Shown here: in pieces, positions 2,786-4,594 of the stretch | Layout of the letters: every line of letters starts with the position of its first letter | Position numbering within the stretch: position 1 is the stretch's first letter | Assembly (NCBI GenBank): GCA_002269645.1 | Contig: NIVC01003841.1 | Span: 1 to 64,000 of the forward strand | From: Macrostomum lignano | Lineage: Eukaryota | Length of the DNA stretch: 64,000 bases | Direction of reading: 5' to 3' | Made by a program: the position numbers and the translations under genes | Notes under the pieces: generated by a model | What the model was told of the DNA's origin: nothing | The model's database searches: none | The model's input: only the letters and a program-made list of their open reading frames with translations

Positions 2786-4594
2786 CTGCAAAAGCAAAAG
2801 GGAGGCGGAGGCAGGGCAGAGTGCGTGGCGCGAGATGCAGCAGGATTCAGCAGCTAAATCATGCAGGCTACGGTAGAAGCGGAGAAAGAAATTCTGCGCC
2901 CCGCTTCTAGAAGCAAGGCGAGAGGCCGGGTCCGCCAGGACCTGGAAGGCGCCCGGAACGTGAAAGGCCCGCAGCCGCAGACCCCACGCGTCGCAGGCAA
3001 GCGACAGCGTGTGCAGGAGCCGGTTGACGTCGTTACATGGCGAGCTGAGCTTGTTCAGCGCACCGACAGCCGCTGAGCTGTCGCTGTACACGACGATGTC
3101 CGCACCGGCGAAGCGGCCCGGGGCCGCGAGGATGCTGAGGACAGGCGTGATGGTCTCCTTAACGTTGATGTGGGCCGAAGCAAAACGGCCACCAGCGTCG
3201 TTCTTCCAGTTGATGTAGAGCCAGTCGGATTTATTGGCCTCCCGAACAATGCAGGCACCACCCGAGTTGCAGGCGTCAGTCTCGATGACGATCTTTCGAG
3301 CGTAGCGAGGCCAGATGGGCGCGCAGCCAACGGACTGAAGGCTTCTCCTCCACCAGTGCAGCAGCTCAGTGAGGTGCGGGGTCAGCCGCAATTTGTCCCC
3401 AGGTCTAGTCGCCCGGCTCGCCAGCATCAGTAGAGGGCGGATGGAAGCTCGGCCTTTCCTGGTCACGCTGCTCACCCAGGACAGCTTGCCGCAGATCCGC
3501 TGAAGGTCGCGCTTGCTGATGGCACCGCGTCGATGCAAGCAGCTCCCAAGTGCGTCTTCGAGTGCACTGAGCTTGGCCACTGGGATGCTCAGCATCCCCG
3601 ACTCTGTGTCAATCAGGACGCCCAGGAAAACCGTGCGCCGCGACGGCCCGCTAGACTTCTTTTCGTTGATGGTGAAACCGAGGCTCGTCGCCAGGCTCCT
3701 CAAGCTCTCGTAAGCCTCGACACAGGACTCGTAGGTGCTCCCGGCCACAGCGAAGTCGTCGAGGTAGCCAACGCAGGTGAACTCGCGCCGTTGCATCATG
3801 CGCACCACCGCCTTAGACAGCCTGTTGAAATGGTACACCGAGGCCGCAGCGCCGAAGCTCAGCCGGGTGTCGACCAGGTAGGTAGGCTCGCTGTCGCCGC
3901 TAAATTGCCATTTGATTCCCAGAGCGTCGAGAGAAGAAGGATGAACACCTACAGAGCGATACGCCTCCTTGAGATCGATCTTGGCCGTGAAGTCACCGGG
4001 CTTGAGTTGTGAGCAGAGGCCGCTAACCGTTTCAAACTTAATCTTGTGGTCTGCGATAAAGTGGTCGTTGACCGCACAGCCTTCCGGACGACTGCAGTCG
4101 TGGATGATACGGACTCCACCGTCCTCTTTCGGGATGGCACCAAGCGCGGAGATCTTGCACGGACGTCGGCTGACTGACACATACCGCCCGCTGGCGATCT
4201 CACGCTGCAATTGCTCTTCAACCAGCGTCTTGTACTCACTGGCGGACGAGTAGTTCTCAACTTCGGAAGGCTTAAAATCTGTTTCAGTAGTGAGCGCGAA
4301 GCCGTTTTGGACTCCGTCAATTAAAAAAGGCCCATCGGGGTCGCCGTCTAGCTCCTTCGCCCAGGCATTTGCGTCAAGGGAGCCACTCGGATTGAAATTG
4401 ATGTCGCGAATGGAGTAAAAACTTGGGATTAAAATTTGCGGCTGCCAGCTTGCCGGGGCCACTGGAGCCGCGGCTATTCGTTTTTTGCCGCGTGTTGCGT
4501 CTCGCCGTGGTCCGAGCGCAAGCAGACCCGGCACGCATGAGTGTACTTGCAATTCTGGAACTTGCAGCCACCACGGGTATTGAACTTGAGGCAC
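2642..4594 (-). CDS. YR-retrotransposon reverse transcriptase / RNase H (ORF2)
   Basis: 650-codon open frame; GAIPKEDGGVRIIHDCSRP, KIDLKEAY, DTRLSFG, YLDD; RNase H ETDAC, HINVKE, YSDS, HVPG...ADPASR. No AUG before the RT core. Confidence 0.93.
   Translation of the reverse strand: MPQVQYPWWLQVPELQVHSCVPGLLALGPRRDATRGKKRIAAAPVAPASWQPQILIPSFYSIRDINFNPSGSLDANAWAKELDGDPDGPFLIDGVQNGFALTTETDFKPSEVENYSSASEYKTLVEEQLQREIASGRYVSVSRRPCKISALGAIPKEDGGVRIIHDCSRPEGCAVNDHFIADHKIKFETVSGLCSQLKPGDFTAKIDLKEAYRSVGVHPSSLDALGIKWQFSGDSEPTYLVDTRLSFGAAASVYHFNRLSKAVVRMMQRREFTCVGYLDDFAVAGSTYESCVEAYESLRSLATSLGFTINEKKSSGPSRRTVFLGVLIDTESGMLSIPVAKLSALEDALGSCLHRRGAISKRDLQRICGKLSWVSSVTRKGRASIRPLLMLASRATRPGDKLRLTPHLTELLHWWRRSLQSVGCAPIWPRYARKIVIETDACNSGGACIVREANKSDWLYINWKNDAGGRFASAHINVKETITPVLSILAAPGRFAGADIVVYSDSSAAVGALNKLSSPCNDVNRLLHTLSLACDAWGLRLRAFHVPGAFQVLADPASRLASRSGAQNFFLRFYRSLHDLAAESCCISRHALCPASASLLLLQVRRLLPPAYPGRSFAFSPTPGLLVRGHRTLQTSNSGSASATSKVFSH

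Follow-up and report, generated by a model that had tools for sequence, protein, structure and literature searches.

The window analyzed here is a 64,000-nt stretch of DNA from Macrostomum lignano, and its minus strand carries an Ngaro-type tyrosine-recombinase retrotransposon (Table 1), placed by layout and domains, with an RT tree that contained no named reference elements. The gag, RT/RNase H (RT/RH) and tyrosine recombinase (YR) genes lie on one strand in the Ngaro order. Gag has an N-terminal SAP domain and a C-terminal cluster of Cys/His fingers (about 4593-4500). The RT/RNase H frame contains motif A (3976), motif B (3862), YLDD (3766) and RNase H-type acidic motifs (3283-2938). The YR of the window copy is disrupted by a frameshift near 2340, and the copy retains only A1 and a single B repeat. 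Split direct repeats in the arrangement A1-ORFs-B1A2B2 are present in three other copies of the family (L117, L118 and L120) and in relatives; in L117, the A repeats are 192 nt long (98% identity) and the B repeats 62 nt long (100% identity).

This arrangement is the layout described for Ngaro (passage in PMC8547959), a group of the order DIRS; passages in PMC3783388 and PMC3266345 were also used for comparison. The element resembles Ngaro in its gag-RT/RH-YR order, in its repeats and in lacking a methyltransferase match (no Pfam match to this domain at E <= 0.1 in the element), and split repeats occur in PAT elements too (passage in PMC3266345). A DIRS1-like identity was considered and rejected, given the direct repeats in the copies, the lack of a long inverted match inside the window element and the missing methyltransferase match.

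The Ngaro element sits at a TTA within the 5' LTR of a BEL/Pao retrotransposon, whose body (about 5714-11570) is frameshifted and whose LTRs lie at 1462-1706 plus 5700-5713 and at 11577-11821. Because the BEL/Pao LTRs are identical over 245 nt, both insertions look recent. Elsewhere in the window, positions 13800-64000 are largely occupied by many long minisatellite arrays with units of 8-32 nt, and the minus strand of 1-780, downstream of the nested elements, holds pieces of what may be a host coding sequence whose start resembles a signal peptide.

Table 1. Parts of the Ngaro-type element, in window coordinates
Feature	Position	Strand	Remarks
Whole element	5702-1704	-	
A1 terminal repeat (5' end)	5515..5702	-	Recurs after B1 in copies L117, L118 and L120
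ORF1/Gag, 330 aa	4474..5466	-	AUG 5466; SAP domain (PF02037, E 4e-9)
Slippery heptamer A_AAA_AAC	4480..4486	-	P-site AAA, A-site AAC; at the end of gag in 14 clusters
Spacer, 8 nt	4472..4479	-	Contains the final gag codon and the gag stop
Predicted frameshift-stimulator hairpin	4438..4471	-	11 bp, bulged C
Two U-rich UUUUA motifs 3' of the hairpin	4416..4434	-	Found clade-wide
RT/RNase H frame, -1 relative to gag	2642..4624	-	PF00078, E 9e-14; predicted entry at 4480
Predicted intron	2786..5153	-	Donor at 5153 in phase 1; acceptor (pyrimidine tract plus CAG) ends at 2786
Tyrosine recombinase (YR), no AUG of its own	1774..2785	-	PF00589, E 2e-6; PF02899 weak
B repeat (3' end)	1704..1753	-	A2-B2 missing from the window copy

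The initial annotation had proposed a -1 ribosomal frameshift cassette linking gag to RT/RNase H, and its description of the local sequence was confirmed. Read from its AUG, gag ends GCA AAA AAC GAA TAG (stop codon at 4476-4474), with A_AAA_AAC in X_XXY_YYZ phase, and this is the sole in-phase canonical heptamer in the 50 codons over which gag and RT overlap. The RT frame is, as had been claimed, open in -1 and without an early start; its first AUG (3799) lies past motifs A and B and only 11 codons ahead of YLDD. A tandem slip at the heptamer predicts a fusion of 329+612 = 941 aa, in agreement with the earlier estimate of about 940. The proposed stem-loop was also recovered 8 nt after the heptamer, with GCGGCU pairing with AGCCGC, CCAGU pairing with GCUGG, and one bulged C on the 3' side of the stem. 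Folding prediction assigned this hairpin a stability of -21.6 kcal/mol and an ensemble frequency of 0.82-0.94. The cassette has the components of a canonical -1 frameshift signal, i.e., an in-phase X_XXY_YYZ heptamer, a spacer of 5-9 nt followed by a predicted structure, and an open -1 ORF lacking a start.

For this element alone, the chance of finding any in-phase canonical heptamer in the gag/RT overlap is about 0.08. The hairpin had a z score of -2.0 to -2.3 in three of four folding windows (5 of 200 shuffles were as good) and -1.3 in the fourth, and an equally good hairpin occurs at 10% of positions in the RT body. By itself, the cassette in the window is textbook in form and only moderately unlikely by chance. 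A pseudoknot is not supported for the window hairpin, as no partner was found within 40 nt and the best one (5 bp) is more than 70 nt distant. A second heptamer, U_UUU_UUA at 4328-4322 on the minus strand, is in RT phase inside the RT ORF and is probably incidental.

A DNA search of the same genome returned 25 matches to the element, including the window itself and one duplicate (C4413, L116), which matches the window at 99.9% identity over 5.5 kb, flanks included, and is a duplicate of the region rather than an independent insertion. The initial annotation had named loss of the heptamer or stem in other copies as a finding that would count against the cassette. In the 19 other family matches, the heptamer showed no substitution in 133 bases and a single A insertion (L021), and the hairpin stem showed 6 changes in 405 bases, 4 of which retain G-U pairs while 2 break a pair. 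Differences amounted to 5.3% in the loop and 4.1% in the flanks. Two copies have lost the 3' side of the stem through a 17-nt deletion, and two carry such a stem-breaking change. Since these copies share descent and are not independent, the within-family counts lend weak support.

The decisive part of the evidence is comparative and comes from the sequences of distant families in the same genome. Two RT searches were sampled (140 of 2,025 and 142 of 1,443 candidates scored); 80 stretches were picked as representatives, 30 further loci were fetched and 9 duplicates were dropped. The resulting 102 loci, window included, formed 19 clusters at 70% RT identity, one of which (the L078 cluster) was left out as uninformative, its gag running into RT over a deletion. 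Gag ends on A_AAA_AAY in 14 of the 19 clusters, and the motif is present in 59 of the 65 loci of these clusters. Twelve clusters have AAC followed immediately by a stop, one has AAU followed immediately by a stop (L086, the sole variant, A_AAA_AAU, which is still slippery), and the window has one additional codon. Each of the 14 clusters contains at least one copy with the correct phase and an open RT frame, and RT identity among their representatives is only 39-58%. Of 12,291 other codon positions taken as background, one carries this motif in phase. The heptamer is preceded by C (codon NCA; position 4487 in the window) in representatives of all 14 clusters.

It could be argued that gag and RT once formed one frame and that the window copy is simply broken by an indel, the heptamer being there by chance; after all, this copy does have a frameshift in YR. 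However, its own family and 13 further clusters share the same -1 arrangement and motif. Conservation of the heptamer across families removes chance as an explanation, and this reading is refuted with near certainty.

A constraint on the Lys-Asn peptide at the end of Gag was ruled out on codon usage. The Lys of the heptamer is always encoded by AAA (background 157 of 535, 29%), and the third base ahead of this Lys codon is always A (background 13%), which argues for selection on nucleotides rather than on the peptide. Slippage of RNA polymerase or RT on the A6 run could also add a base, bringing gag and RT into one frame in some transcripts, and single genomic copies (L021, L073 and L089) do have an extra A in the run. 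However, the run is short, and slippage needs no codon phase, yet all 14 clusters keep both the phase and a pyrimidine at the last position. In addition, contigs showed no indel at the junction (though contigs drop rare variants). We regard transcript slippage as highly improbable.

Conservation of the heptamer across families at the nucleotide level, together with an RT that has no usable AUG in the window family, strongly supports -1 ribosomal frameshifting at A_AAA_AAC, and on this comparative basis we hold with considerable confidence that it yields a minor Gag-RT/RNase H fusion. Ribosomes would mostly read one codon past the heptamer and stop, producing the 330-aa Gag, whereas a minority of them would slip back one base on the Lys and Asn codons and continue with Arg-Ile in the RT frame. 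RT would thereby be made in small amounts and tethered to Gag in the predicted 941-residue protein. From the heptamer, its phase, the missing AUG and the conservation we infer both the slip and its efficiency. In the window family, the hairpin located 8 nt downstream probably aids the slip by pausing ribosomes, a role for which the predicted fold makes a reasonable, if far from firm, case.

The claim of a canonical signal held for the clade with respect to the heptamer but not with respect to the hairpin. A predicted hairpin with a stability of at least -15 kcal/mol lies 5-9 nt past the heptamer in 8 of the 14 clusters. One further cluster has it at 11 nt, and the remaining 5 have none, the hairpin-less families being F3, F7, F10, F11 and F15. 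The stems could not be aligned between families and gave no covariation support for the proposed structure, while within the window family 4 of the 6 stem changes keep pairing. The hairpin is a lineage-specific feature for which a stimulator role is predicted, and the putative signal shared throughout the clade is the heptamer with an adjacent stop (13 of 14 clusters, the window being the exception). In two families (L070 and L081), long tandem-repeat linkers of more than 100 and about 250 codons, respectively, separate the shift site from the RT core.

The position of the stop, which adjoins the heptamer in 13 of 14 clusters, would also fit a mechanism in which translation ends at the gag stop and resumes in the -1 frame, making RT a free protein. 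In two clusters (L088 and L098), UGAUG joins the stop with an overlapping RT-frame AUG, and another has an AUG 6 codons on. An in-frame AUG within 45 codons of the junction was present in 12 of 16 other representatives, and reinitiation could serve those families. However, in the window family the first RT-frame AUG comes only at residue 229 past the junction, so reinitiation cannot contribute there, and families F2, F4 and F6 have none for 85-277 codons. Stopping and restarting also leaves the A6 run unexplained, and we consider it very unlikely as the general mechanism.

Four of the 19 clusters (34 of 36 loci) have no heptamer and instead carry gag-UGA-CUN at the junction. In copies free of later indels, UGA-CUN is in frame with RT, and examples of this candidate stop-codon readthrough site between gag and RT include L092, L097, L148, L154, L160 and L180. 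The arrangement resembles the type II readthrough motif, UGA-CUA/CGG (passage in PMC3159437), in its in-frame UGA followed by CUN, and differs from it in a variable third base (CUA, CUG or CUC); this likeness concerns the relatives and not the window element. No 3' structure was predicted in 5 of 6 readthrough representatives. By analogy, UGA-CUN may be a second route to the same Gag-RT fusion. In a tree of 22 RTs, with a midpoint root on four outside homologs and without named references from Ngaro or PAT, the two readthrough representatives in the set were sister to a frameshift family (support 100/100) and fell inside the clade. Because they nest inside the frameshift clade, we infer a switch from frameshifting to readthrough. 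With A_AAA_AAY in 14 clusters and UGA-CUN in 4 of the 19, a Gag-RT fusion made through recoding is likely. The heptamer and the gag stop stay constant across the clade, and UGA readthrough would bring one sub-lineage to this fusion as well.

YR has no start codon either, and the initial annotation had suggested that, with a splice from gag to YR, one transcription unit would yield three proteins sharing the SAP N-terminus. Removal of the predicted intron would join Gag residues 1-104 to YR and add a SAP N-terminus to it. A pyrimidine tract and CAG, in phase 1 and 23-41 nt ahead of the YR homology, were found in all 16 representatives with a YR match (F8, which has no such match, is outside this set), and phase-1 donors are present in gag wherever it is long enough for testing. 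Judging by this acceptor, the element very likely splices. The three-protein proposal depends on this splice, whose acceptor is conserved. The joint itself was not seen: eight possibly-RNA contig sets (4 for the window and 4 for family F15) contained no GT-AG joint between gag and YR or between gag and RT. Because contigs drop rare forms, the lack of a spliced contig counts neither for nor against splicing. Four joints on the window were rejected as splices; two represent genomic deletion copies (L128/L134 and L135), one is like an empty site and the ends of the last are non-canonical.

Frameshifting at the RT-YR overlap has been proposed for Ngaro by Poulter and Butler (2015), who called it "probable" (as quoted in a passage of PMC13003380). 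A slippery heptamer was found in the RT/YR overlap of 4 of 16 representatives, within the pyrimidine tract in two of them, and 12 had none. In contrast to that proposal, the shift site is here at gag-RT, and a splice acceptor precedes YR in every representative examined.

An element that probably splices could also express RT from a separate message, whether spliced, trans-spliced or initiated at a non-AUG codon, and the heptamer would then be incidental. Behind the gag stop, the sequence is rich in U and C and has branch-point-like UUUUA motifs, and some families have AG sites there. However, candidate acceptors behind the junction are absent in 8 of 16 representatives, including the window, and the remaining ones occur in all three phases, whereas the YR acceptor is fixed in phase 1. 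Splicing leaves both A_AAA_AAY-stop and UGA-CUN unexplained, and contigs from two runs span the window junction without a gap. A separate RT message is unlikely, and frameshifting at the heptamer remains our preferred explanation.

UUUUA motifs are concentrated behind the junction, with 27 in 1,280 nt; for comparison, gag has 2 in 14,400 nt and RT has 20 in 19,200 nt. The enrichment is present in both frameshift and readthrough types and in all three codon phases (17/6/4). UUUUA followed by pyrimidines occurs at 4434-4416 in the window and in most relatives, and also right after the YR frame near 1780. One idea, by analogy with PTBP1, which has been shown to protect retroviral RNA from nonsense-mediated decay (PMC4764554), is that these motifs may shield the long region after the gag stop from this pathway.

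A more comprehensive model would be that the clade signal, A_AAA_AAC plus stop, works without RNA structure, that one sub-lineage moved to UGA readthrough, and that YR arises from splicing instead of the published RT-YR frameshift, such that one transcript gives rise to three SAP-tagged proteins. We offer this combined model tentatively, as a possibility with the balance against it. If it is true, the pause would come from slow termination, from a protein bound to the U-rich motifs, or from both.

The frameshift signal itself is already known. On mammalian ribosomes, A_AAA_AAC ranks with the shiftiest heptamers, and -1 frameshifting at gag-pol was reported for 28 of 51 animal LTR retrotransposons (both from the portion of review PMC5009743 covered here). 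The window element is like these LTR retrotransposons in having a -1 pol and a classical heptamer, and belongs to a different order of retroelements; the same portion of the review does not mention DIRS or tyrosine recombinase. A AAA AAC is also the gag-pro -1 frameshift site of MMTV as well as of HTLV-1 and HTLV-2 (passage in PMC12789967). Similarities to that system include the heptamer at the end of gag, the -1 downstream frame, a structure 5-8 nt further on and a minor fusion, here a predicted one. In contrast to the retroviruses described in the same passage, the heptamer is carried here by a YR retrotransposon that lacks both a protease and a DDE integrase, the window has a simple predicted hairpin rather than a pseudoknot, and the relatives of the window have a stop directly after the heptamer, with no predicted structure in 5 of 14 clusters.

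The literature passages checked also included PMC6681497, PMC5633606, PMC4495291 and PMC9210276. Within the literature covered, none shows how YR retrotransposons make their AUG-less enzymes, a question for which the present result provides an exact and testable site. The literature searched did not contain the heptamer-stop shared across the clade, the sister lineage with readthrough or the conserved acceptor of YR; the primary Ngaro papers lie outside it and may already describe them. The families also form a natural panel in one genome, comprising one heptamer with or without a hairpin, a stop directly behind the heptamer or one codon later, and a sister lineage whose junction has a readthrough context. 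Such a panel could probe the effect of a stop codon adjoining a slippery site and the switching between frameshifting and readthrough in retroelements.

Other organisms were also searched for related sites. A search for Gag homologs gave no match, and a scan of metagenomes gave 3 distant loci (27-28% identity), two with an upstream ORF in the +1 frame that lacked a Lys-Asn end and one an unrelated RT. Of the outside homologs, 51 have 25 or more residues ahead of the RT start, and 43 of these had no KK[LR]. At the protein level, KK[LR] was present within 75 residues upstream of RT in the other 8, compared with about 2 expected (P about 0.001). These protein-level matches include two proteins, CAC5380816.1 and CAG2196096.1, from Mytilus coruscus and M. 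edulis with KKRI, which is the same as the RT-frame reading of the site in the window.
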